64,000 nt of DNA from Blastocatellia bacterium (GCA_046331565.1 JAXLQP010000001.1:1433162-1497161), one strand, 5' to 3'; counted from the stretch's first letter, positions 12,648 through 57,475 are shown. Translations and numbers: made by a program. Notes: generated by a model not told the origin, from the sequence alone.

Positions 12648-14570
12648 TCAGGGCTGCTGATCGGCAGCGGGTGGCGGCGGATGCTGATGTTCAGCGCCGG
12701 TTGAATGTTCAGCTTTTTCTGCGCTGCCAGGTTCATCATGACTGCCTTTGCGCGGGCTGGCGGAATGTTCGCTGCTGCTGAAATTTTCGAGCAGTTTGCG
12801 GTGCGCCCAGCGCCACACATCTTCGCTGAAGACTGCCGCCACCAGACAGGTCAGCAGCAGCACATAAGGGTTCGGTTCACTGCCACTCGATGCAAAGATC
12901 GCCAGGCCGCCTTCCACCGCCAGAAAGACGACTATCGCCGCCGACAATCCCCTGATTACCACGCCGGGCAGGTCAGCGACCAGCACACCGTCATTTCCCC
13001 GGCGCACGCGCTCACGCACAAAGGTCGAGCAGGCCGAACCGAGCAACCCGAATCCCAGCAGGCCGGTGATGAGCGCCAGCGACAGCGATTCGGTGCTGAG
13101 CAGCCACCGGGCGACAAAGCCGAACGGCCCCAGGAATGAACCGAGCGCGGGACGTTCGGGCAATCCTTCGAGCGATAATACAGGGCGGCAGGAATCCAGC
13201 GTTTTGCGGTACGACTCGCTCAGCGTCGCCCCGAAAATCACATCGTCCGGCAGTTCGCGCCCGTGCGTGAGGGCATCCTGCAACTGCGAACTCCAGATTC
13301 GCCAGTAAATGTCATTGCTGCCCACAGCCGAGCCGCAGGCGTTGATGCGGCTTTCAAATTCGCTGACCTTCTGCCGGTAAAAAGCCGACAGCGCCAGAAA
13401 GTGCTGCACCTTTTCGCGCCCGCCGATGCGATAGGCATTACTCGCCTCATAGGTCGAGACAATGGCCGATTGCGTGTCCTTCAGGCGGGCCTGCGCATTC
13501 TGCACCAGGTTGCGATATTCATTGAGCAGGTCATCGCGCATGCCTTTATGTCGCAGCAGCAGCGGCTTGACGTATTCAATGTCAACTGCCTGAACGGGCG
13601 TGGGAATGGCAGGCGCTGAAGGCGAAGGCTGCGCGGCTGCGTCAGTTTTCTGCCCGGTCTGCGGTGTGGCTGAAGCCTGGGTTCCTGTCGGCTGAATGTT
13701 CTGCGGCGATGGCGATGGTGAAGCTTGCGCGGCGGGCTTCGCGGCTTCCGTTTCTTTCTGCCTGTCGGAGCGGCTGATCACTTCTTCAAGCGGAGTGAAC
13801 GGATTGATGCTTTTCAGTTCACGGTTCAGGTTGATTTCGGCCTGCTGCCGGACTTCCTCAAGCTGTTGTTTGAGCTTTTCAGGATTGACCTGCTCGGCTT
13901 CAGGCGAAGTCTGCCGCAAACCGGGAATGGCAGTGATGGCAGCGACACTGAGATAACCGGCCAGGGCGAGCACCAGAAAAAAGATCATATTCTGTCGCGT
14001 CACTGGCCTGAGTCCGGCCAGCGCGTCATAAATGCGCCAGTGGCCGGTCGCAGTTCCGCTTTGATCTGCCGCGCCCGGACTGAGAAACCGGGCGATGACT
14101 GCCCACAATGCCAGCATCAGCACCAGTTGTCCCCAGGGCAGCGCCACCGGTTCGAGCGAAAGAATGACGTTGGCCACAGCCCGCCCCCAGCCGGTGAGAA
14201 AAAAGATTCCGCTCTGGGCAATGCAGTTTGTTGTTTCGCTGTCGCGCCCGCACATCTGCCGGATGAATTCCCAGTTCCGGGGCAGTTCAACCAGCACATC
14301 CCTGAACAGCCTGACCACGAGGTTGATCATCGCGCCAATGAATGATGGCAGCACCGCCGGGAAAAACAGCGTCGCCAGACCCAGGCTGATGAGGCGCGTT
14401 CTGAGATCCTCGCCAAACAGGCCGTCGCCGCGCGACCAGATTCTGAAGATGCCCCGGAGCAGCCGGAACATCAGGTAAAGCAGAATGAGCAGCCCCAGCA
14501 GCGACAGCGCCACAAAACAAATGGCAATGATCAGCAGGTGATTTTGTGACTGGTCGTTCATGGCCGTCAC
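12648..14570 (-). CDS. Hypothetical polytopic membrane protein with Pro/Ser/Ala/Gln-rich central region
   Basis: 640 aa, multiple hydrophobic segments at both ends, low-complexity PSPS/AQ linker, charged C-terminal tail; no family recognised. Confidence 0.5.
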   Translation of the reverse strand: MTAMNDQSQNHLLIIAICFVALSLLGLLILLYLMFRLLRGIFRIWSRGDGLFGEDLRTRLISLGLATLFFPAVLPSFIGAMINLVVRLFRDVLVELPRNWEFIRQMCGRDSETTNCIAQSGIFFLTGWGRAVANVILSLEPVALPWGQLVLMLALWAVIARFLSPGAADQSGTATGHWRIYDALAGLRPVTRQNMIFFLVLALAGYLSVAAITAIPGLRQTSPEAEQVNPEKLKQQLEEVRQQAEINLNRELKSINPFTPLEEVISRSDRQKETEAAKPAAQASPSPSPQNIQPTGTQASATPQTGQKTDAAAQPSPSAPAIPTPVQAVDIEYVKPLLLRHKGMRDDLLNEYRNLVQNAQARLKDTQSAIVSTYEASNAYRIGGREKVQHFLALSAFYRQKVSEFESRINACGSAVGSNDIYWRIWSSQLQDALTHGRELPDDVIFGATLSESYRKTLDSCRPVLSLEGLPERPALGSFLGPFGFVARWLLSTESLSLALITGLLGFGLLGSACSTFVRERVRRGNDGVLVADLPGVVIRGLSAAIVVFLAVEGGLAIFASSGSEPNPYVLLLTCLVAAVFSEDVWRWAHRKLLENFSSSEHSASPRKGSHDEPGSAEKAEHSTGAEHQHPPPPAADQQP

Positions 14571-14600
14571 CCTCCTTTCGGGCCGCAGCAGCCGGATCTG

Positions 14601-16118
14601 TTATTTTTCCGGGCTGGTCAGCGTCGGCCTGTCAAATTCAGTCGCAGCCGGATGGTCAGAGTTTTGAGCCGCCCACGCCGGGCCGATAAAACGATGGCGT
14701 TCGTGCAGCACGTACCACAAGGCCAGCGCAACAGTCACCGCCGCAATTGATTTGCCAGCCCGCAGGTTGTCCGGCAGGCTGAGAATGATGCTCAGAAAGA
14801 TGACATACAAAATAGCGATGATATTGATCGCGGCGCTGTATCGCCCAAGATGCCAGGGGCCGCGTTTGATCTGCCGTTCAGTGCCGCTCGCCCGTCGCGC
14901 CAGGTAAACCGGCAGGATGTAGGAAATATAAAGTCCGATGGTGCTGATCGAAGTCACCACCGCATAAGCTCCGCTGTAAACCGCTGCGACAAACGCGGCA
15001 GCCACGCACAGCCAGATGGCCGGAACCGGAGTTGAATGTTTGTGGCTGACCTGCTTCCACACCACTGACAGCGGCAGGCCTTCATCACGCGCAAAGGCCC
15101 AGATCACACGCGAACTCCAGGTCACTGCCGACAGTCCGCAGAACCACATCGCCATTGCCGCGAGCGCCGAAAACAGGCTGCCCGCGCGTTCGCCGAGCGC
15201 CGTCCCTAGAATCGCAATCACCGCCGGAACGTCATTGCCGCTCGCATCCTTTGCATTCAGCACGCCTGAAATATCCCTGATCGAAAGCGTCAGCGCAATC
15301 AGCAGCAGGTAGCCGACCACACCCGACACCACAACCGCCATCAGCATGCCCCAGGGCGCGCGGCGTCGCGGATCAACCGTTTCTTCTGACACGCTTGCCG
15401 AAGCGTCGTACCCCGTGAACGTCCACATCGCCTGCAACAACCCGATGACGAAAGCCCAGCCGTAAGACCAGCCTTCGGTGTTGCTCGTGATGCGCGCAAA
15501 GAAAAATCCGGCGGGCTGTTTCGGCGCAAAAAGCAGCAGCGCGCCGACAATCACAATCACGCCGATGATATGCACCGTCACACTGAAATCATTGAGCCAC
15601 GCCACCAGCCGGATGCCGTAATGATTGATCAGCGCGTGCGAGAGCAGAATCACGGCGTAAACGATCAGCAGATTCTGCGTCGTTGCAGCCAGCCCGATGA
15701 GCGGCGTCACGAACAAAGCGCAGCCGTAATCAATTCCGGCCAGCGCGGCAATCTGCCCGATGATATTGAACCACGCCGTAAACCAGCCCCAGCCTTTGCC
15801 ACCGAGATGACACGACCAGTGATACATCGCGCCCGAAGTCGGCAGCGCCGAAGCGAGTTCGGCCATGCTCATCACGACCGCAAGCGTCAGCAGCGTAACG
15901 AGCGGCCAGCCGAGCGACATCTGCGCCGGGCCGCCCATTTTCAGACCGTGACCGTAAAGCGTCACGGCTCCGGTCAGAATTGAAATGATTGAAAACGAAA
16001 TAGCGAAGTTCGAGAACCCGCCCATGGTGCGAAAGAGCTGCTGGGCATAACCGAGTCGGCCCAGTTCCTGCGCATCCTCGCGGGCATCGTGTGCGGCGTG
16101 ATCCGGGGACTTGTTCAT
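14601..16118 (-). CDS. APC family amino acid/polyamine permease
   Basis: 505 aa, 12 predicted TM segments, typical APC N-terminal motifs (FSNFAISFSIISILTG...). Confidence 0.8.
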   Translation of the reverse strand: MNKSPDHAAHDAREDAQELGRLGYAQQLFRTMGGFSNFAISFSIISILTGAVTLYGHGLKMGGPAQMSLGWPLVTLLTLAVVMSMAELASALPTSGAMYHWSCHLGGKGWGWFTAWFNIIGQIAALAGIDYGCALFVTPLIGLAATTQNLLIVYAVILLSHALINHYGIRLVAWLNDFSVTVHIIGVIVIVGALLLFAPKQPAGFFFARITSNTEGWSYGWAFVIGLLQAMWTFTGYDASASVSEETVDPRRRAPWGMLMAVVVSGVVGYLLLIALTLSIRDISGVLNAKDASGNDVPAVIAILGTALGERAGSLFSALAAMAMWFCGLSAVTWSSRVIWAFARDEGLPLSVVWKQVSHKHSTPVPAIWLCVAAAFVAAVYSGAYAVVTSISTIGLYISYILPVYLARRASGTERQIKRGPWHLGRYSAAINIIAILYVIFLSIILSLPDNLRAGKSIAAVTVALALWYVLHERHRFIGPAWAAQNSDHPAATEFDRPTLTSPEK

Positions 16119-48437: not shown

Positions 48438-50930
48438 ATGAACAAAGTATTTCTGATTATCACTGCCCTTCTGCTGTTCAGTTCCTTCGCCTTCGCCCAG
48501 GAATTTGAGGTCAAAAAATATGATGTCGCGGCGCGCGTTGATCTCGAAAACCACACGCTCGAATCAAAGGCGAAGCTGGATCTCATCAATCTTTCCGGGC
48601 CTGAACTGGCCGACAAAATTCTGCTGGCCGGGCCGGATGGCAAGCCGAAGCTTTCGTTTCAACTCAACGGCAGGGCCAAAGTGTCGGCGATGACGATCAA
48701 CGGCAGTCCGGTCACTTTCACGGCAAAGGAAGATTCATCGCGCACCGGGGCCGGGTTGCAGAATGTCTCGACCGAAATCAATTCAGCCATCGCCGCGATG
48801 CGCGAACTCGAAGTTGAATTCACCTACGCGATTCCGATGTTTGACAAGGCTGCCGGGCAAAGCAGCGATTCGGCGCGCAGCGGGTTGCTGATTTCATCGC
48901 TTGAATGCTTCGCGCTGCCGACCGCGTTCTGGGTGCCGGTCAAACATTCACCGTATGGCGATCACGGGCCTGACACTGCGCCGTTTACGTTGAATGTCAC
49001 TGCGCCTGCGGGTCTGAAAGTCGTGACTTCCGGCGTGCGCAAATCCGACAGCGCCTTCGATCAGACCTATGCCGCGCAGCCGTTCTTTATGGCGGGCGAT
49101 TACGAAATCTTCAGCGCGGGCGGCAGCCAGACCGCCGGGCTGCCTTCGGCTCCGAAAGTTGAAGTGTATGCGCCGCGCGGCCTCGATGAGGCCGGACGGC
49201 AGCAGGCGCAGCGCATCGCCACCGAAGCGGCGCGGATGATTGATTTTTACACGAAGTATTTTGGCGGCCTGGTGGGCGGCACCTTTCGCATCGTGTCATC
49301 GAATGTGCGCGAACGCGATACGGCCATCACGGGCGAACTGGTTTCGCACGGGCTGAGCTTTGCCGCGCCCGGCGTGGTCGCCATTCCTGACAGCCTCTTT
49401 CATCGTCAGATTCTCGACCTCGGCACGATTGAACTGCTCGCCAGCGCAGCGGCGCGGCAATGGATTGACGGGCGCGTGCTGCTGCGCGGGCGCGGCACCG
49501 GCGTGCTGCGCGACGCGCTGCCGATTTACCTGACGGCGCAATACCTCGGCGAAAGGTTCGGCGACAAGCAGCGCGAAGCCGCCTTTGAACGCTATCGCCG
49601 CGCTTATGCTCCGGTGGCGCGTGGCGGCGATGCTCCGCTGCTGCTGCAAAGCCAGCTTGATCGCGGCTACACGACCAGCGTTTACAACAAGGGCGCGCTG
49701 GTCTGGCGCATCTTTGAAAAGGCGCTCGGCAGACAGGCGCTTGATGCCGTGATTACTCGTTCGCTTGATCGTCAGCGCACTGATGTGCTGGTGCTGACCG
49801 ACTGGCGTTCGCCATTGTGCGGCGCGGCGCGCTGCGCCAGTCTGAAAGGCAATCTCGCCGGAGCCGCCACGCCGCAGATGCGCCAGGCGGTCACTGATCT
49901 TTTTGCGCAATGGATTGAAAACGTCGTGCTGCCCGACATTGCCGTTGGCCAGCCCACCAGCACCGCCAGCGGAGTTGAATCAACCATCACCAATTTCGGC
50001 AACGGCGATTTCCCCGTTGAAGTCGTGGCGACAACCGACAAAGGCGAAAAGCTGCGCCGGACAGTGATGGTCAAGGCCGGAGAATTCGGTTCGATCACTT
50101 TTCCTGCCGGAACGCAGATCAAAACCATCGAAGCCGACCCTGAGCGCGTTTACATTCAGAAGGATTACACGAACGATGAATTCCCGCGCCATTCAGCGAG
50201 CGCCGATCTGTACGGCCAGGCGGCGCTGGCGCTGAGCAAGGCCACGCAAACCGGAGCCGACGCCCGAACGCGCCAGACTGAAATTGCGACGGCTGAAGCG
50301 AAAGTGCGCGAAGCTCTGGCGGACGACCCCGATTCACCGACGCTGCTGGCATTGCAGGGCCGCGTGCTGCTCGCGGCTGGCAAAAACGACGAAGCCAGTC
50401 GCGCCTTCAATGCCGTTTTGAAAGCCGAACCGCTGCCGATCCAGGCCTACGGATTCGCGCTGCTCGGCCTGGGCGAACTGGCGATGCAGCAGAACAATGC
50501 CGCCGAAGCCGCCCGCCGCTTCCGCGAAGCCGCCGCCACCGATCTTGACCAGGCCACGATTGATGCTGCCCGCGACGGCGCACTGCGCGCTGAACGCGCG
50601 GCAGGCGTAATCAAAATTCCTGAAGACATCAAAGGCTTCCTGCAAAAATTCGACACTGCCGTTTTGCAGGGTTCAGACGAATCAATTTCAACGCTGCTCG
50701 AACAGGGCACGCTGCGCAAATTCGGCAAGTCGCTGCTCGGCACCAAACCAGCGGTCTGGGTTACAGAACCGCTGCGCGCTGAAACGCTCGATGCCAACCG
50801 CGTCGCCGTTGATGTGGCGCTGAAAGTCAAACTGCTCGGCAAGGATTACTCAGGCCGCGCGCTTTACATCATCAGCCGCAACGGCGGCAGACTGCTGCTG
50901 AGCGAGGTTCCGGTTTTCGATGTGAAGTGA
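48438..50930 (+). CDS. Large secreted hypothetical protein with C-terminal TPR-like repeats
   Basis: Signal peptide MNKVFLIITALLLFSSFAFA; 830 aa; TPR-like helical repeats near residues 640-720. Confidence 0.5.
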   Translation: MNKVFLIITALLLFSSFAFAQEFEVKKYDVAARVDLENHTLESKAKLDLINLSGPELADKILLAGPDGKPKLSFQLNGRAKVSAMTINGSPVTFTAKEDSSRTGAGLQNVSTEINSAIAAMRELEVEFTYAIPMFDKAAGQSSDSARSGLLISSLECFALPTAFWVPVKHSPYGDHGPDTAPFTLNVTAPAGLKVVTSGVRKSDSAFDQTYAAQPFFMAGDYEIFSAGGSQTAGLPSAPKVEVYAPRGLDEAGRQQAQRIATEAARMIDFYTKYFGGLVGGTFRIVSSNVRERDTAITGELVSHGLSFAAPGVVAIPDSLFHRQILDLGTIELLASAAARQWIDGRVLLRGRGTGVLRDALPIYLTAQYLGERFGDKQREAAFERYRRAYAPVARGGDAPLLLQSQLDRGYTTSVYNKGALVWRIFEKALGRQALDAVITRSLDRQRTDVLVLTDWRSPLCGAARCASLKGNLAGAATPQMRQAVTDLFAQWIENVVLPDIAVGQPTSTASGVESTITNFGNGDFPVEVVATTDKGEKLRRTVMVKAGEFGSITFPAGTQIKTIEADPERVYIQKDYTNDEFPRHSASADLYGQAALALSKATQTGADARTRQTEIATAEAKVREALADDPDSPTLLALQGRVLLAAGKNDEASRAFNAVLKAEPLPIQAYGFALLGLGELAMQQNNAAEAARRFREAAATDLDQATIDAARDGALRAERAAGVIKIPEDIKGFLQKFDTAVLQGSDESISTLLEQGTLRKFGKSLLGTKPAVWVTEPLRAETLDANRVAVDVALKVKLLGKDYSGRALYIISRNGGRLLLSEVPVFDVK

Positions 50931-51514
50931 TGGAGAATCTTATGTCATTGCCAGCCAGAGTCATCAACCTTACTGTTGAAGAGTACCTTGAAATGGAAGC
51001 AGAAAGTCCGGTCAGGCATGAATATGTTGCCGGACAGACTTTTGCCATGGCCGGAGCCAGTGATGCACACAACATCATCGCCGGAAACATCTTTACGATC
51101 ATCCGTTCTGTCCTGCGCGGGAGCGGGTGCCGTGTCTGTCTCGCTGAGATGAAAGCCTGGGTTGAAGAGATCAACGCATTCTATTACCCGGATGTAATGG
51201 CGACCTGTGAACCATTCGATCCGAAGAGCGTATTCAAAAGTCGTCCTTTTCTGATAGTTGAAGTATTGTCGCCATCCACAATGAGCACAGACCGGCGCGA
51301 GAAACTTTCAGCTTATGGGCAACTGGACAGTGTGCGGGAATATGTGGTGGTTTATCAGGATCGCAGGCGTCTTGAAGTTCATCGCAAAGACACACAGGGC
51401 GTCTGGCTGACAGTTGTGCTGGGTGAAAACGATGAACTGCGACTGGATTCCCTGCCCACCGGCCCGTTGACAATGAAGATGGATGAAATTTACGAGGATG
51501 TCACATTTGTCTGA
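50930..51514 (+). CDS. Uma2 family (DUF820) endonuclease
   Basis: Signature …YVAGQ…, …PFLIVEVLSPST…D…KL.AYG…EYVVV…; start overlaps the upstream stop. Confidence 0.8.
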   Translation: MENLMSLPARVINLTVEEYLEMEAESPVRHEYVAGQTFAMAGASDAHNIIAGNIFTIIRSVLRGSGCRVCLAEMKAWVEEINAFYYPDVMATCEPFDPKSVFKSRPFLIVEVLSPSTMSTDRREKLSAYGQLDSVREYVVVYQDRRRLEVHRKDTQGVWLTVVLGENDELRLDSLPTGPLTMKMDEIYEDVTFV

Positions 51515-52074: not shown

Positions 52075-52097
52075 TCAGTCAGCGTGCGGCAACGAAT

Positions 52098-52180
52098 GAC
52101 GGTGTTTGGAGTTCCAGCTTTAGCTGGCTGTGGCTTGTTTCAGGCCAGACCAGCTAAAGCTGGAACTCCGAACACTGTCA
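52098..52180. terminator. Long imperfect palindrome downstream of kdsC
   Basis: TGACGGTGTTTGGAGTTCCAGCTTTAGCTGG … CCAGCTAAAGCTGGAACTCCGAACACTGTCA (G·U-compatible mismatches). Confidence 0.55.
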
Positions 52181-52229: not shown

Positions 52230-52257
52230 TTGAAATCCGCTGAAGACCTTCTATAAT
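52230..52257 (+). promoter_or_regulatory. Sigma70-like promoter candidate (TTGAAA-16 nt-TATAAT) in an AT-rich gap upstream of the TIR gene
   Basis: Consensus-like -35/-10 with 16-nt spacer, inside the locally AT-rich 52200-52300 stretch; roughly 210 bp upstream of ATG 52467. Confidence 0.35.
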
Positions 52258-52466: not shown

Positions 52467-54017
52467 ATGGATAACCCTTCAAGTGACACGCGGCGGGCGC
52501 GCATCTTCATCAGCTACAAACGCACCAACCCGGACGAGGCGCTGGCGATGGAAGTCTTTCGCGCGCTCCAGTCAAAGTACGATGTCTTCATTGATCAGAC
52601 CATGCTGGTCGGCACGCCCTGGGCGCAGCGGATTGAAGAAGAACTGCGGCGCGCTGATTTTCTGATCACCTTCCTTTCTGAACATTCGGTCAACAGCGAA
52701 ATGGTGCTGGGCGAAATCGAAACCGCGCACCGGCTGGCGAAGGAATGCCAGGGCAAACCGGTCATCCTGCCGGTGCGGCTGGCTTACCGCGAAGCTTTCA
52801 GGTATCCGCTCAGCGCGTTTCTCAATCCGATCAACTGGGCTTTCTGGAACAGCCCTGAAGACACGCCGCGCCTGATTGATGAACTCAGTCGCGCCATCAA
52901 CGGCGGCAGCCTGGCAGGCAGCGGGCAGCCGACAGCCCCGGCTACTTCACCTGCGCTCAATGCCCTGCCGCAACCACTGCCTGCGGCGCAGCCACCTGCG
53001 CGCAAGGTGACGCTTGATCTGCCCGAGGGAACGATTGACACGCAATCACAGTTCTATGTCGTCCGCGACACCGACGCGATTGCGCTCGAAGCCATCAAAC
53101 GACAGGGCGTGACCATCACGATCAAAGGCCCGCGACAGATGGGCAAAAGCTCGCTGCTGATTCGCACCATCAAGGCGGCGACGAATCTGGGCAAGCGCGT
53201 GGCCTTTCTCGATTTTCAGTTATTCGACAAAACGGCGCTCTCAAGCGCGGATGTTTTTTTCAGGCAGTTCTGTTCGTGGATGAGTGATGAACTCGACCTT
53301 GAGGACAAGACCGAGGAATGCTGGAAGGCTCCGCTGGGCAACAGCCAGCGGTGCGCGCGTTACGTCAGCCGCTATCTGCTGAAGGAACTCAAAGGCCCGC
53401 TGGTGCTGGCGATGGATGAAGTCGAAAGCATCTTTGAGACTGATTACCGCACCGATTTTTTCAGTATGCTGCGAAGCTGGCACAACAGCCGCGCCACTCA
53501 GGCGACCTGGAAACAGCTTGATCTGGCGCTGGTGACTTCAACCGAGCCTTACCAGTTGATCGAAAATCTGAATCAGTCGCCATTCAATGTCGGTGAAGTC
53601 ATCGAAATGTGCGATTTCAACGCCGCGCAGGTGGCCGACCTCAATCAGCGGCACAACAACCCGCTCAATCAGGAACAGCTCAATCAACTGATGGCGCTGC
53701 TCAGCGGGCATCCTTATCTCGTGCGGCGCGCGCTGTACGTGGTGGCCAGCGGGCGCATCAGCGTGGCCGATCTGTTCGCCCAGGCCACAAGTGATCGCGG
53801 GCCGTTCGGCGATCACCTGCGCTATCACCTCTTTCGGCTCAACAACCACGAGGAACTGATTCGCGGGCTGCAACAGGTCATCAGGCATCACGCCTGCCAG
53901 AACGAGGAAGTCTTTTTCAGATTACGCGGCGCAGGCCTCGTCCGGCGCGAAGGCCACGCCGACCTGCCGCGCTGCCAGCTTTATGCCGATTATTTCCAGG
54001 AGTACCTCCATGTCTGA
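52467..54017 (+). CDS. TIR domain protein fused to an AAA-like (PF14516-type) P-loop NTPase domain
   Basis: N-terminal TIR_2-like block (RIFISYKRTNPDEALAMEVFRALQSKYDVFIDQ…ADFLITFLSEHSVNSEMVLGEIETA); Pro/Ala linker; then QFYVVRDTDAIALEAIKRQGVTITIKGPRQMGKSSLLIRT (Walker A) and hhhhDE Walker B (LVLAMDEVE). Confidence 0.75.
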   Translation: MDNPSSDTRRARIFISYKRTNPDEALAMEVFRALQSKYDVFIDQTMLVGTPWAQRIEEELRRADFLITFLSEHSVNSEMVLGEIETAHRLAKECQGKPVILPVRLAYREAFRYPLSAFLNPINWAFWNSPEDTPRLIDELSRAINGGSLAGSGQPTAPATSPALNALPQPLPAAQPPARKVTLDLPEGTIDTQSQFYVVRDTDAIALEAIKRQGVTITIKGPRQMGKSSLLIRTIKAATNLGKRVAFLDFQLFDKTALSSADVFFRQFCSWMSDELDLEDKTEECWKAPLGNSQRCARYVSRYLLKELKGPLVLAMDEVESIFETDYRTDFFSMLRSWHNSRATQATWKQLDLALVTSTEPYQLIENLNQSPFNVGEVIEMCDFNAAQVADLNQRHNNPLNQEQLNQLMALLSGHPYLVRRALYVVASGRISVADLFAQATSDRGPFGDHLRYHLFRLNNHEELIRGLQQVIRHHACQNEEVFFRLRGAGLVRREGHADLPRCQLYADYFQEYLHV

Positions 54018-55626
54018 AATCCAAACTCAGTCGGTTATGCCTGCGCCTCAGGTGGTCTTTACCACAGGCGGCACCGTGCAGGCAGGCAATGGCATTTACC
54101 TCGCGCGCCGCGCTGACGATGAACTGCTCGCGCTCTGTCGCAAAGCGGTGTTCGCTTATATTCTGACGGCGCGGCAGCTTGGCAAATCCAGCCTGATGAT
54201 GCGCACGGTTGAGCGATTGCACAGCGAAGGCATCAGAACAGTCATCATTGACCTGACTGCCATTGGCGTCAACGTCTCAGCCGATGAATGGTATCTCGGA
54301 CTGCTGGCGACAATGGAAGAACAACTGATGTTTGAGACTGACATTGTCGAATGGTGGCGCGAGCGGCAGCACCTGGGCCAGACGCAGCGGCTGACGATGT
54401 TTTTTGAGGAAGTGCTGCTGAGCGAGGTGAAAGAGCCGGTCGTGGTTTTTGTGGACGAAATTGACACCACGCTGAGCCTGAAATTCACCGATGATTTCTT
54501 TGCCGCGATTCGCTACTTCTACAACGCCCGCGCTCAGAACCACGATCTGGCGCGGCTTTCGTTCGTGCTGATCGGAGTAGCCACGCCGGGCGATCTGATC
54601 AAGGATGAACAGCGCACGCCTTTCAATATCGGTCATCGGGTCGAACTGACCGACTTCACTTTTGAAGAAGCTCTGCCGCTGGCCGATGGGTTCAGGCTGT
54701 CGGCGCCGGAAGCTGAACAACTGCTCCGGTGGGTGCTGAAATGGACGAGCGGGCATCCGTACCTGACGCAGCGGTTGTGTCGCGCGCTGGCTGAAGAAAA
54801 ACGAACAAGCTGGACTGAGGCCGCCGTTGATGAAGTCGTGGCCCGCACCTTTTTTGGTGAACGCAGCGAACAGGACAACAACCTGCAATTCGTCCGCGAC
54901 ATGCTGACCAAACGCGCGCCTGACCGTGACGGCGTGCTGTCGGTTTACAGCGCGGTCATCGAGGGCCGTGTGCCGGTGCCGGATGAAGAACAGTCGCTCG
55001 TCAAATCGCACCTGAAACTGTCGGGCGTCGTGCGGCGCGAAAATTCAGAACTGAAATTGCGCAATGCCATTTACGGCCATGTCTTTGATCGCAAATGGAT
55101 CAGCGAACATCAGCCGGTGAACTGGATGCGGCGGCTGGTCAGAATCGGTTCGGCAATTCTGGGCATTCTGATGCTGCTTTCGATTCCGCTGGCGATCTAT
55201 GCTTTCTATCAGGCCAGCCAGGCCAATCAGGCCCGCACCAAAGCTGAAGAAGCACTCAAACAGGTCAGACTGGAACGCGAATACGCGCTTGAGCAGGAGC
55301 GCAAGGCCAAAGAAGCCCAGGACAGAGAACGGGCGCAGAAAGAAGCCCTGGCCAGCGATCAGGCTGAGTTGCAGGCTCTGATCAATCAGTTGCAGCAACA
55401 GTCGGGTGACAGTTATGAGCCGCTCTCAAAAAAATTGCAGCGTCTGCTCGATGCTCAGAAAAAACTTTCCGATCAGCAGCGAACTGCCGCCGCCCGCGCG
55501 CAGTCCGAATCTGACAAATTGCGCGCCACGCTGAACACAGTGCAGGGTGAATTACAGCAGGCTAAAAATGAACTTACTGCGTGCCGTCGCAACCTCAATC
55601 CGAAAATGCAACTGAAGGGCAATTGA
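54010..55626 (+). CDS. AAA-like (PF14516-type) P-loop NTPase with C-terminal TM helix and ~140-aa coiled coil
   Basis: GIYLARRADDELLALCRKAVFAYILTARQLGKSSLMMRT (Walker A), VVFVDEID (Walker B); hydrophobic helix LVRIGSAILGILMLLSIPLAIYAFY; heptad-rich Q/E/K/R tail; ATG overlaps the upstream stop (ATGTCTGA). Confidence 0.7.
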   Translation: MSEIQTQSVMPAPQVVFTTGGTVQAGNGIYLARRADDELLALCRKAVFAYILTARQLGKSSLMMRTVERLHSEGIRTVIIDLTAIGVNVSADEWYLGLLATMEEQLMFETDIVEWWRERQHLGQTQRLTMFFEEVLLSEVKEPVVVFVDEIDTTLSLKFTDDFFAAIRYFYNARAQNHDLARLSFVLIGVATPGDLIKDEQRTPFNIGHRVELTDFTFEEALPLADGFRLSAPEAEQLLRWVLKWTSGHPYLTQRLCRALAEEKRTSWTEAAVDEVVARTFFGERSEQDNNLQFVRDMLTKRAPDRDGVLSVYSAVIEGRVPVPDEEQSLVKSHLKLSGVVRRENSELKLRNAIYGHVFDRKWISEHQPVNWMRRLVRIGSAILGILMLLSIPLAIYAFYQASQANQARTKAEEALKQVRLEREYALEQERKAKEAQDRERAQKEALASDQAELQALINQLQQQSGDSYEPLSKKLQRLLDAQKKLSDQQRTAAARAQSESDKLRATLNTVQGELQQAKNELTACRRNLNPKMQLKGN

Positions 55627-56020
55627 AGACCAGGAAGTCAGTCGGCCCCTGAGGCAGCGGCGCGAGCGCCAGCCTGCTTCAGGTCGGGCAAACTGCCGGT
55701 TTTACCCTTCCCGCATTCTGACGCTCGCGGCGCTGCCCCGGTCGCCTGACCAGACTTCACCCGCAGTAACGGCACCGATGAAGATCGCTTCACCGGCTGT
55801 TACCGGGCAACTGTCAGCAGCAGATTGTGAGGTCGTGAGAATGGCCGAAACGGAACCGCTCAAAGATCATTCGTTGTTTACTGGTCAGTCATCAAAGCAA
55901 TGTTCATCGGCCTGGAACCGGGTGGGCAGCAACTGCATCCTGGCACAACTCACGGCCAGGTGTAAACTTTTCGTTTCGCGGAAGGACATTAGAAAATCAG
56001 GCCGGTTCAGATGGTTGGCT

Positions 56021-57475
56021 TCAGTCAAAAACGATGTTGTGGCCTTTTTTGTGTTCGCGGCACATCTTCTGCGCCGGGACGGCCTTGCCTGGATTGCAGA
56101 GTCCGGTCGGATTGAAAACATCCTTGACCGACAGCATCGCATCCAGCGAAGCCTGATCGAAAATCAGCGGCATATAGCTGATCTTGTCCACGCCGACGCC
56201 GTGTTCGCCTGAAATCGAACCACCGGCGGCCACGCACAGTTTCATAATCTCGCTGCCAGCCAGGTGCACACGTTCGACCTCATCGCGGTTGCGCCCGTCA
56301 AAATTGATGTTCGGATGCAGGTTGCCATCACCCGCGTGAAAGACCGTCGAAAGCCGCAGTTTGTATTTCGCGCCGATGGCGTAAATGCCCGCCAGCACTT
56401 CGGGCAGCTTTGTGCGCGGCACGACCGAATCCTGCACAAAGAGATCAGGACTGACGCGACCGAGCGCGCCGAATGCGCCCTTGCGTCCGGCCCATAATTT
56501 TTTGCGTTCGACCTCATCACGCGCTTCGCGCACCGACCGCGCGCCGTGTTCGCAGCAGATGTCAATGGCGCGCTGCACCTGCTGATTCATCCCGGCCTGC
56601 AATCCGTCAAGCTCGACAATCAGACAGGCCGCCGCATCGCGCGGATAACCGGCGGCATAAACCGAATCCTCGACCGCATTGATCGTCACGCGGTCAATCA
56701 TTTCAAGCGCCGCAGGCAGAATCCCGGCGGCAATAATCGCCGACACCGCGCGACTGGCATCGTTGATGTCGAGAAAATCCGCGAGCAGCGTGACCACCAG
56801 TTGCGGCGTGCGCGTCAGCTTCACAGTAATTTTCGTTGCAATCCCAAAGGTGCCTTCGCTGCCGACAAACAGCCCCAGCAGGTCATAACCAATCGTGTCA
56901 GCTCCGTGCCCGCCCAGGCTGACGATTTCACCATCGGGCAGCACGACTTCCAGACCCAGAATGTGATTGGTCGTCATCCCGTATTTCAGACAGTGCGGCC
57001 CGCCGGAATTTTCAGCGACGTTGCCGCCCAGCGTGCACGAAGTCTGCGACGAAGGATCAGGCGCATAATGATAACCATTGGCCGCAATCGCCTGCGAAAG
57101 GCGAACATTAATCAAGCCCGGCTGCACGATGGCCCGCTGATTGGCGTAATCAATTTCGAGGATGCGATTCATCCGCGCCATTTCGATGATGACGGCTCGT
57201 TCGCCCTTTTCGCAGCCAATCGCCAGCGCGCCCGAACTCAGCCCCGTGCCCGCGCCACGCGGCCCGAAAGCGATATTGTTTTTTGACAGCAGCCGCACCG
57301 TGCGCGAAACCTGTTCAGTCGTCGTCGGAAAGACAACCGCCAGCGGGCGCACTTTATGCGTCGTGATGGCGTCGCATTCGTAAACCATCAGTTCGGCCTC
57401 ATCAGTCAGCACTGCGTCTTTGCCGAGAATCGAATGAAGTTCGGTAATAACTGCCTTGTCGAGTGTCTGCATAAA
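56021..57475 (-). CDS. FAD-binding oxidoreductase (GlcD / D-lactate dehydrogenase-like, FAD-linked oxidase family)
   Basis: FAD_binding_4 motifs (…PRGAGTGLSSGA…), C-terminal FAD-oxidase_C region; ~480 aa. Confidence 0.8.
   Translation of the reverse strand, partial: FMQTLDKAVITELHSILGKDAVLTDEAELMVYECDAITTHKVRPLAVVFPTTTEQVSRTVRLLSKNNIAFGPRGAGTGLSSGALAIGCEKGERAVIIEMARMNRILEIDYANQRAIVQPGLINVRLSQAIAANGYHYAPDPSSQTSCTLGGNVAENSGGPHCLKYGMTTNHILGLEVVLPDGEIVSLGGHGADTIGYDLLGLFVGSEGTFGIATKITVKLTRTPQLVVTLLADFLDINDASRAVSAIIAAGILPAALEMIDRVTINAVEDSVYAAGYPRDAAACLIVELDGLQAGMNQQVQRAIDICCEHGARSVREARDEVERKKLWAGRKGAFGALGRVSPDLFVQDSVVPRTKLPEVLAGIYAIGAKYKLRLSTVFHAGDGNLHPNINFDGRNRDEVERVHLAGSEIMKLCVAAGGSISGEHGVGVDKISYMPLIFDQASLDAMLSVKDVFNPTGLCNPGKAVPAQKMCREHKKGHNIVFD

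Follow-up and report, generated by a model that had tools for sequence, protein, structure and literature searches.

Plants, animals, fungi and bacteria all rely on STAND/NLR proteins as their central immune switches inside the cell. In NAIP-NLRC4 and in the sensor/helper NLR pairs of plants, a sensor nucleates a hetero-oligomer with its partner, and TIR domains are activated by oligomerisation in SARM1, in plant TNL resistosomes and in bacterial TIR filaments. To our knowledge, every bacterial STAND protein characterised so far (Avs, bNACHT) is a single cytosolic protein. Here we analysed a pair of genes in a 64,000-nt stretch of DNA from a Blastocatellia bacterium (GCA_046331565.1, JAXLQP010000001.1:1433162-1497161; the whole stretch is called the window hereafter). 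They are named gene A and gene B in place of gene 1 and gene 2 of an earlier reading of this DNA, made from the sequence alone (the original prediction). The pair is a real and widespread two-gene NLR-like module. It represents a very large family that divides the switch between two proteins: a TIR executor without a sensor, and a partner without an effector that is in most cases anchored in the membrane.

The nSTAND2 systems (PMC8195603) are mobile two-gene operons with paralogous STAND cores, a predicted hetero-multimeric toroid and variable effectors. For the MNS clade of STAND NTPases, to which the archaeal proteins PAB2304/2qen and SSO1545/2fna are assigned, the part of PMC8195603 (Kaur et al. 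2021) drawn on here describes single effector-STAND-lectin proteins and contains no A/B pair with a membrane-anchored partner. The same part credits to work of 2004 a STAND family fused to TIR, caspase, trypsin, kinase and FHA domains. AAA_35, the family to which both genes of the window belong, is probably the 'Npun2340/2341 family' that is cited there from Leipe et al. 2004, and 'MNS-Npun2340' appears in the supplements of PMC8195603 only in unrelated architectures.

A widespread two-gene module with paralogous STAND cores

Profile searches with Pfam placed a TIR_2 domain at residues 13-128 of gene A (E = 3e-19) and an AAA_35 module (PF14516) at residues 185-512 (E = 4e-114), while gene B carries a second AAA_35 module at residues 21-360 (E = 7e-37). 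Both modules scored above the gathering threshold of the family (27 bits), with 381.3 bits over model positions 1-331 for gene A and 127.4 bits over positions 4-330 for gene B, and they share 30% identity over 238 aa (E = 9e-35). Their P-loop motifs are GPRQMGKS and LAMDE in A, and ARQLGKSS and VFVDE in B. The original prediction had thus read the domains correctly: it had named a TIR_2-type domain, a Pro/Ala linker and a STAND-like NTPase of the PF14516 type in gene 1 and a divergent copy of that NTPase in gene 2, and the Walker motifs quoted (GPRQMGKS/DE and RQLGKSS/DE) lie at the expected coordinates. It had further proposed for gene 2 a single hydrophobic helix and a heptad-rich coiled coil of about 140 residues, which were recovered as a span of 22 residues and a tail of 136. 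The size of gene 1 (516 aa) stood, and that of gene 2 was corrected from 539 to 538 aa. The features of the locus are listed below.

52230-52257, + strand: sigma-70-like promoter, TTGAAA-16 nt-TATAAT (11/12 consensus match), about 210 nt 5' of gene A
52467-54017, + strand: gene A, TIR-linker-AAA_35 (STAND) protein of 516 aa, proposed effector or 'executor' subunit (open reading frame; Pfam; AlphaFold2 model with a predicted local distance difference test score, pLDDT, of 83.7; more than 4,600 homologues)
52503-52850, + strand: TIR_2 domain, gene A residues 13-128 (Pfam)
52713-52715, + strand: codon of Glu83, putative catalytic glutamate of a TIR NADase (invariant in 51 homologues)
52914-53036, + strand: Pro/Ala-rich flexible linker, gene A residues 150-190 (pLDDT below 50 at residues 152-193)
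53019-54002, + strand: AAA_35 STAND-type NTPase module of gene A, residues 185-512 (Pfam)
53127-53150, + strand: gene A Walker A, GPRQMGKS
53415-53420, + strand: gene A Walker B, DE
53706-53717, + strand: gene A GHPY (GxP-like) motif
54010-54017, + strand: overlap ATGTCTGA of the gene B start with the gene A stop (translational coupling)
54010-55626, + strand: gene B, AAA_35 (STAND)-transmembrane helix-coiled coil protein of 538 aa, proposed membrane-anchored sensor or regulator subunit (open reading frame; Pfam; AlphaFold2 pLDDT 77.4; homologues)
54070-55089, + strand: AAA_35 STAND-type NTPase module of gene B, residues 21-360 (Pfam)
54172-54192, + strand: gene B Walker A, RQLGKSS
54454-54459, + strand: gene B Walker B, DE
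54751-54762, + strand: gene B GHPY motif
55144-55209, + strand: predicted transmembrane helix IGSAILGILMLLSIPLAIYAFY, gene B residues 379-400 (Kyte-Doolittle 2.2 over 19 residues)
55216-55623, + strand: Q/A/L/E/K-rich coiled-coil tail, gene B residues 403-538, predicted to be extracytoplasmic (heptad contrast z 3.9)

The archaeal MNS-type STAND ATPases 2qen and 2fna were the top structural neighbours of both modules, followed by the TIR-NLR WRR4A, CED-4, the wheat NB-ARC resistosome, MalT, Avs3, Avs4 and Avs5; ORC/Cdc6, TnsC and MuB scored lower than the STAND proteins. The three-part NOD module of STAND proteins is present (nucleotide-binding, helical with a GxP motif, and winged-helix domains), and solved STAND proteins are its nearest relatives in structure. 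The helical domain of both families contains a GHPY motif, at what we take to be the position of the STAND GxP motif. The structural ranking and this motif together identify AAA_35 as a STAND (NLR-like) module of the MNS type. The remaining parts of a STAND protein are found across the pair and not on one chain, with effectors N-terminal on A and repeat-type sensors C-terminal on B. The Walker A Lys, the Walker B Asp-Glu and GHPY are all invariant in 51 A-type and 50 B-type homologues, and the conservation of the Walker residues means that neither partner looks like an inactive STAND protein. A sequence search of the PDB returned no solved relative of the NTPase module; its RecA matches were discarded, being confined to the P-loop and repeated along a RecA multimer construct. 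A role in DNA transactions of the ORC/Cdc6 or TnsC/MuB type was likewise rejected, since STAND proteins stand above these in the ranking and the loci share no transposase or replication context. Neither protein exceeded any curated cut-off in NCBIfam.

For the conservation of the pair we gathered 15 loci from a scan of a genome collection and more from exact-protein look-ups, plasmid records and IMG/VR, counting only loci with enough DNA. Both gene types were present in all 25 loci, which came from Cyanobacteria, Acidobacteria, Abditibacteriota, Chloroflexota and one viral contig, so that the two genes, presented as a unit by the original prediction, are indeed kept together. This held, with A and B side by side, for 18 of 18 loci anchored on A (window included), for 4 of 4 anchored on B, for the viral contig and for two more distant loci on plasmids of Nostoc HK-01 and of the Chloroflexota 'Ca. 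Chlorohelix', where identity falls to 32-37%. B usually lies directly 3' of A, the genes being divergent in Nostoc linckia and ordered B then A in Chlorohelix. Pairwise distances of the A and B modules were correlated (Mantel r = 0.72, p = 2e-4), and two natural single-chain fusions, P0077 and P0240, join the partners in the order B-TIR-A. An all-against-all comparison of neighbours in 17 loci found no third conserved gene, only antisense shadow open reading frames. At 50% identity the family comprised 2,320 clusters at E <= 1e-30 and 7,367 at E <= 1e-10, mainly from Cyanobacteria, Acidobacteria (Blastocatellia, Pyrinomonadaceae), Chloroflexota and Abditibacteriota.

The second open reading frame of the window pair is open from 53983 to 55626 on the + strand, and the ATG at 54010 gives the 538-aa gene B. 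In the 8-nt overlap ATGTCTGA this ATG is joined with the TGA of gene A, and some 10 nt upstream, still within the last part of gene A, there is a GGAG. The arrangement, which had been proposed to couple the translation of the two genes, is kept across phyla: a start codon (ATG or GTG) overlaps the A stop by 8 nt in 11 of 17 junctions. The same overlap occurs in L026 and L027, and L028 has the same 6001/6008 spacing beside a split A gene. The gap 5' of gene A, predicted as AT-rich, about 390 bp long and with a consensus-like promoter, measured 392 bp with a GC content of 0.495, against 0.573 for the window. Both promoter hexamers and the Shine-Dalgarno region are kept in another Blastocatellia locus, L013, despite diverged surroundings. 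Ratios of nonsynonymous to synonymous substitution rates (dN/dS) were 0.07-0.46 across all segments of both genes (0.07-0.3 in gene A), and thus both are real, constrained coding genes. A signature of horizontal transfer was sought at the window and rejected, as the GC content of the pair equals the window mean.

Some observations concern the variation of the locus. In L021 (metagenomic, 14489-15796) a third gene overlaps the B stop by 4 nt; it encodes an N-terminal transmembrane helix with faint CarboxypepD_reg/PEGA matches and may be an extra envelope component in some versions of the system. On two metagenome contigs of cyanobacterial type the A gene appears truncated or split beside an intact, WD40-bearing B (L025, 4479-5501, 340 aa; L028, 4306-6008, 459 + 104 aa), which suggests that the TIR executor was pseudogenised there. 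In the leader of the window pair, an Rfam search for regulatory RNA over the 392 bp gave only sub-threshold miRNA-hairpin matches, which fall on an inverted repeat. This repeat (52097-52127 and 52150-52180; 31 nt, 94% complementary, 22-nt spacer) lies just past the kdsC stop, occurs once in the window and is absent from the syntenic L013; it could serve as the terminator of kdsC or be a small palindromic element inserted there.

Division of labour and predicted membrane topology

The TIR fold of gene A carries a glutamate, Glu83, in the alpha-C region, which aligns with the Glu of '...NYELDG' in AbTIR and of '...WDELEQA' in Cat1, residues that we take to be the catalytic ones. Profile matches of the domain extend to Cat1, AbTIR and SARM1, and the RPS4 TIR domain is among the structural neighbours. 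Judged from these alignments, the TIR domain of gene A is a candidate NAD+-cleaving enzyme.

Across the family, 240 of 267 A-type proteins have a TIR domain, and 257 of 261 terminate within 10 residues of the end of the NTPase module (gene A itself ends 4 residues past it). The region preceding the module ranges from 17 to 1,168 residues and may hold further N-terminal domains: CHAT, trypsin, guanylate/adenylate cyclase, Ser/Thr kinase, FHA, REC, additional TIRs and WD40. Of these, CHAT, trypsin and the additional TIRs are of the kind typically seen in effectors and in cell death. B-type proteins are built the other way round, as 115 of 120 open directly with the NTPase module and continue into C-terminal extensions (median 289 residues) that comprise WD40 propellers, TPR, CHASE2, pentapeptide repeats, CarboxypepD_reg, GUN4 and GAF/PAS domains. 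Labour is therefore divided family-wide, with outputs and no sensor on A, and sensors and no output on B. The window pair is the minimal form, in which A has a TIR only and B a stalk only. Close homologues of 530-563 aa have the same minimal B, so gene B of the window is not a truncation artefact. A different output was seen in L022 (1567-8266, plasmid NZ_CP128401.1 of Ca. Chlorohelix allophototropha), where the gene order is reversed and B is an AAA_35-transmembrane-WD40 protein of 1,490 aa: its A protein is a Pkinase-AAA_35-GerE protein in which the C-terminal GerE domain is a helix-turn-helix (HTH) and no TIR is present, a transcription-factor-like output of the same switch.

Gene B has a single hydrophobic span of 22 residues (379-400), followed by the 136-residue tail, whose heptad periodicity exceeds that of shuffled sequences (z 3.9); the AlphaFold2 model shows long helices at residues 372-461 and 472-528. 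A hydrophobic helix directly after the NTPase module was present in 75 of 120 B-type proteins (median span 22 residues). Its flanks carry a net charge of +2.5 on the N-side and +0.3 on the C-side (Wilcoxon p = 7e-5), and a juxtamembrane motif, NWxKRLxR-helix-IYA, is kept across phyla. In CHASE2 fusions of B the helix is followed by CHASE2 and then by more transmembrane helices, as expected for an extracytoplasmic sensor. The variant with GAF/PAS, a cytoplasmic-type sensor, has no such helix, and in the GUN4 variant a helix lies further downstream (residues 467-485). We predict from these features that gene B is oriented N-in/C-out; because the NTPase must be cytoplasmic, the coiled-coil stalk, like the WD40 and TPR parts of relatives, would lie outside the cytoplasm.

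The tail of gene B has a dN/dS of 0.16-0.24, and its dN is about five times that of the NTPase module in comparison with the closest locus (L001) and similar to that of the module in comparison with L013. Positive selection on the tail was considered and dismissed, dN/dS being below 0.5 throughout. The tail (55105-55623) also matches the NCBIfam HpsJ family, a hormogonium polysaccharide protein (E 1.3e-6, 28.5 bits against a cut-off of 60), which could reflect compositional similarity or a distant homology of membrane-stalk modules. The closest homologues of gene B, P0121 and P0122, are annotated with Pfam PF28006.1.

Proposed switch and rival explanations

We propose that A and B form a two-subunit NLR-like (STAND) switch with divided labour, most likely serving abortive infection or inter-genomic conflict; we hold this reading with a confidence that is evenly balanced. 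In the scheme, B would be the receptor or regulator, with its NTPase module in the cytoplasm, one transmembrane helix in the inner membrane and its C-terminal part outside. A would be the executor, a paralogous STAND module without a sensor of its own and with an N-terminal TIR that has the catalytic glutamate of NAD+-cleaving TIRs. A cue seen by B, or an envelope perturbation acting on B, would bring its NTPase into the ATP-bound open state, and B would then nucleate a hetero-oligomer with A through the homologous NTPase modules. The clustered TIR domains of A could form composite active sites that break down NAD+ or turn it into a signal, after which the cell would stop growing or die. We infer the hetero-oligomerisation of A and B by analogy, and activation by TIR clustering is proposed because SARM1, the TNL resistosomes and bacterial TIR filaments behave in this way; the nature of the trigger and the cellular outcome are likewise conjectural. 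A more specific version is put forward tentatively: B may be a transmembrane NLR with an extracytoplasmic sensor (a stalk here; WD40, TPR or CHASE2 in relatives), which would pass its signal through the membrane by forming a hetero-oligomer with a TIR-STAND executor that lacks a sensor.

A role in conflict or defence fits the effector repertoire of the family, the patchy distribution of the pair across phyla (at 65-70% identity), its presence on 39 plasmid records, the integrases or transposases beside it in L018, L025 and L028, and its neighbours in L021 (TIR-NB-ARC and bpMoxR systems) and L028 (LSDAT-SLATT). Other observations weigh against such a role or against the proposed scheme. The B protein of the window has no recognisable sensor domain, only the coiled-coil stalk, and between phyla gene A keeps 65-70% identity, more than is usual in an immune gene. 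The window pair has the GC content of its genome background and follows kdsC at the corresponding site of a related Blastocatellia genome too (upstream synteny). Its flanks are of the housekeeping kind that the original prediction had described, profiles supporting a KdsC subfamily protein (above the curated cut-off), a GlcD-like oxidase and MoaA, together with ThiC. The 'defence islet' that the original prediction had seen in this context was not supported: the 122 neighbours in 16 loci gave only scattered matches to defence models, one each to ThsB-like TIR, Cas6, PD-T4-6 and IetA, counted without a background control. The same neighbours included 3 TIR_2 proteins, 4 FGE-sulfatase proteins and 2 integrases, the rest being housekeeping. 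PADLOC matched no system model beyond generic TIR matches, in line with the earlier view that the pair is no named defence system. The family is absent from 50,697 phage records and has one match among 2.9 million IMG/VR viral contigs; the viral nature of that pair-bearing contig is uncertain, and carriage by prophages or viruses was accordingly rejected. A full-text literature search for PF14516 gave zero matches, and no experiment on any AAA_35 protein was found. Finally, relatives carry regulatory outputs (Pkinase, cyclase, REC, FHA, GerE HTH) and sensors (GAF/PAS, GUN4, CHASE2). Given the lack of a PADLOC match, the absence from phage records and the weak defence-island association, an anti-phage role is plausible but unproven.

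The regulatory outputs and sensors of relatives keep alive a physiological, non-immune role in transmembrane signalling, in which B would sense an environmental or envelope cue, the pair would act like MalT/AfsR-type regulators, and the TIR would be a scaffold or a maker of a regulatory nucleotide and not a killer. Kinase, guanylate/adenylate cyclase, FHA, REC and GerE/LuxR HTH outputs speak for it, as do GAF/PAS, CHASE2 and GUN4, which are classical signal-transduction domains, the place of MalT among the structural neighbours, the weak defence-island association with absence from phages, and a window locus that is chromosomal, syntenic, native in GC content and under strong purifying selection. 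We nevertheless think it rather unlikely, as the commonest modules on A (TIR with an intact catalytic Glu, CHAT/caspase-like and trypsin) are hallmark effectors of death and conflict, the distribution is patchy across phyla at 65-70% identity, and the pair occurs on plasmids and beside transposases/integrases, TIR-NB-ARC, bpMoxR and LSDAT-SLATT genes; the same effector repertoire on STAND modules is read as that of conflict systems in PMC8195603. Less probable still is a guard or antitoxin-like arrangement with B as membrane tether and inhibitor of A, where loss, cleavage or displacement of B (for example through envelope damage or host translation shut-off) would free A to self-assemble and fire its TIR. 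The conserved translational coupling would fix the A:B stoichiometry, the B of the window offers no sensor domain beyond its stalk, two apparently active and paralogous NTPase modules could form mixed, poisoned oligomers, and an apparently disrupted A beside an intact B in L025 and L028 fits a toxic A. Large and highly variable sensor-type domains on B in most relatives, however, point to a receptor more than to a mere inhibitor; covalent B-TIR-A fusions are hard to square with release of A as the activating step, and A is encoded first, opposite to the common antitoxin-first order. That the adjacency is meaningless, with A an autonomous Avs-like TIR-STAND protein and B an unrelated membrane ATPase or an AAA+ protein of the ORC/Cdc6 or TnsC/MuB type, is extremely improbable: A lacks any sensor region, and the co-occurrence data (both genes in 25 of 25 loci, correlated divergence, fusions, and no third gene or transposase conserved) effectively refute it.

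Two further reading frames near the pair were noted. A putative Uma2-family endonuclease is encoded at 50927-51514 (PF05685, E 6e-33), and its GTG start overlaps with the stop codon of the 843-aa TPR gene before it. In L013 the corresponding two neighbours have no such gene between them, so it is a lineage-specific insertion; L027 likewise has a Uma2 gene close to the pair. On the other side, an open reading frame of 144 aa (55778-56212, + strand) matches no family and runs partly into the 3' end of the GlcD-like gene, which is convergent with it; it is probably not a gene.

Comparison with known systems

The idea of effector-STAND conflict systems has already been published, and AAA_35 is recognised by Pfam and was probably named in 2004. 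Searches of the literature on two-gene, paired or membrane STAND systems returned only general papers of the Aravind laboratory and a 2026 survey of 589 STAND clades in which no AAA_35 family name occurs, and no description was found there of an A/B split with a membrane-anchored, effector-less partner.

Unlike the paired A and B proteins, the archaeal MNS proteins 2qen and 2fna are stand-alone ATPases. The nSTAND2 operons resemble the pair in having two genes whose products both contain a paralogous STAND core. They differ in that one nSTAND2 partner has eroded NTP-binding motifs and GT4/HEPN domains, whereas both Walker A and Walker B are kept here in both partners; the effectors of the present family are TIR, CHAT and others, one partner is membrane-anchored, and Pfam gives AAA_35 only, with no nSTAND match. 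Avs1-5/7 and bNACHT carry effector, NTPase and a cytosolic TPR-type sensor on one chain, functions that are split here over two paralogous STAND proteins, with the sensor side predicted to lie outside the cytoplasm. The proposed mode of action resembles that of these proteins and of plant sensor/helper NLR pairs, but the pair belongs to none of them. Gene A, ending 4 residues past its NTPase module, lacks the C-terminal sensor of Avs proteins, and no Avs or NLR model of PADLOC matched either protein at E <= 1. The TIR domain shares its catalytic Glu with bacterial TIR defence proteins (Thoeris ThsB, TIR-SAVED, Cat1), but no ThsA, SAVED or CRISPR partner is present; PADLOC gave only weak, sub-threshold ThsB and TIR-SAVED matches to the domain, and the 17 loci compared held no conserved third gene. 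Lacking a ThsA-like gene, the pair is not a Thoeris system.

If A and B co-assemble, the pair would be a simple bacterial model of sensor/helper NLR cooperation and proof that sensing outside the cytoplasm can be coupled to a STAND switch; a widespread TIR-based module would also join the candidate immune or cell-death systems, especially those of cyanobacteria and soil Acidobacteria. The window pair is the smallest form (516 + 538 aa, no repeat domain) and is therefore convenient for biochemistry and structure work.

The plant NLR pairs (e.g. RPS4/RRS1) and NAIP-NLRC4 are, like A and B, two paralogous STAND/NLR proteins side by side with sensing and execution split between them and, as in A, a TIR as the output of the executor. 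The likeness is one of logic and not of orthology, as those receptors are cytosolic and belong to the NB-ARC/NACHT clades, whereas AAA_35 is MNS-like. Toll-like receptors follow a similar logic, with a sensor outside, a single transmembrane helix and clustering of TIR domains inside, but in them one chain carries both the ectodomain and the TIR, and no NTPase takes part. If B is indeed a transmembrane NLR, the pair would combine Toll-like-receptor and NLR logic in one bacterial system, and would be a prokaryotic counterpart of the plant sensor/helper NLR pairs in which attack could be sensed at the envelope, before or without entry into the cytoplasm.

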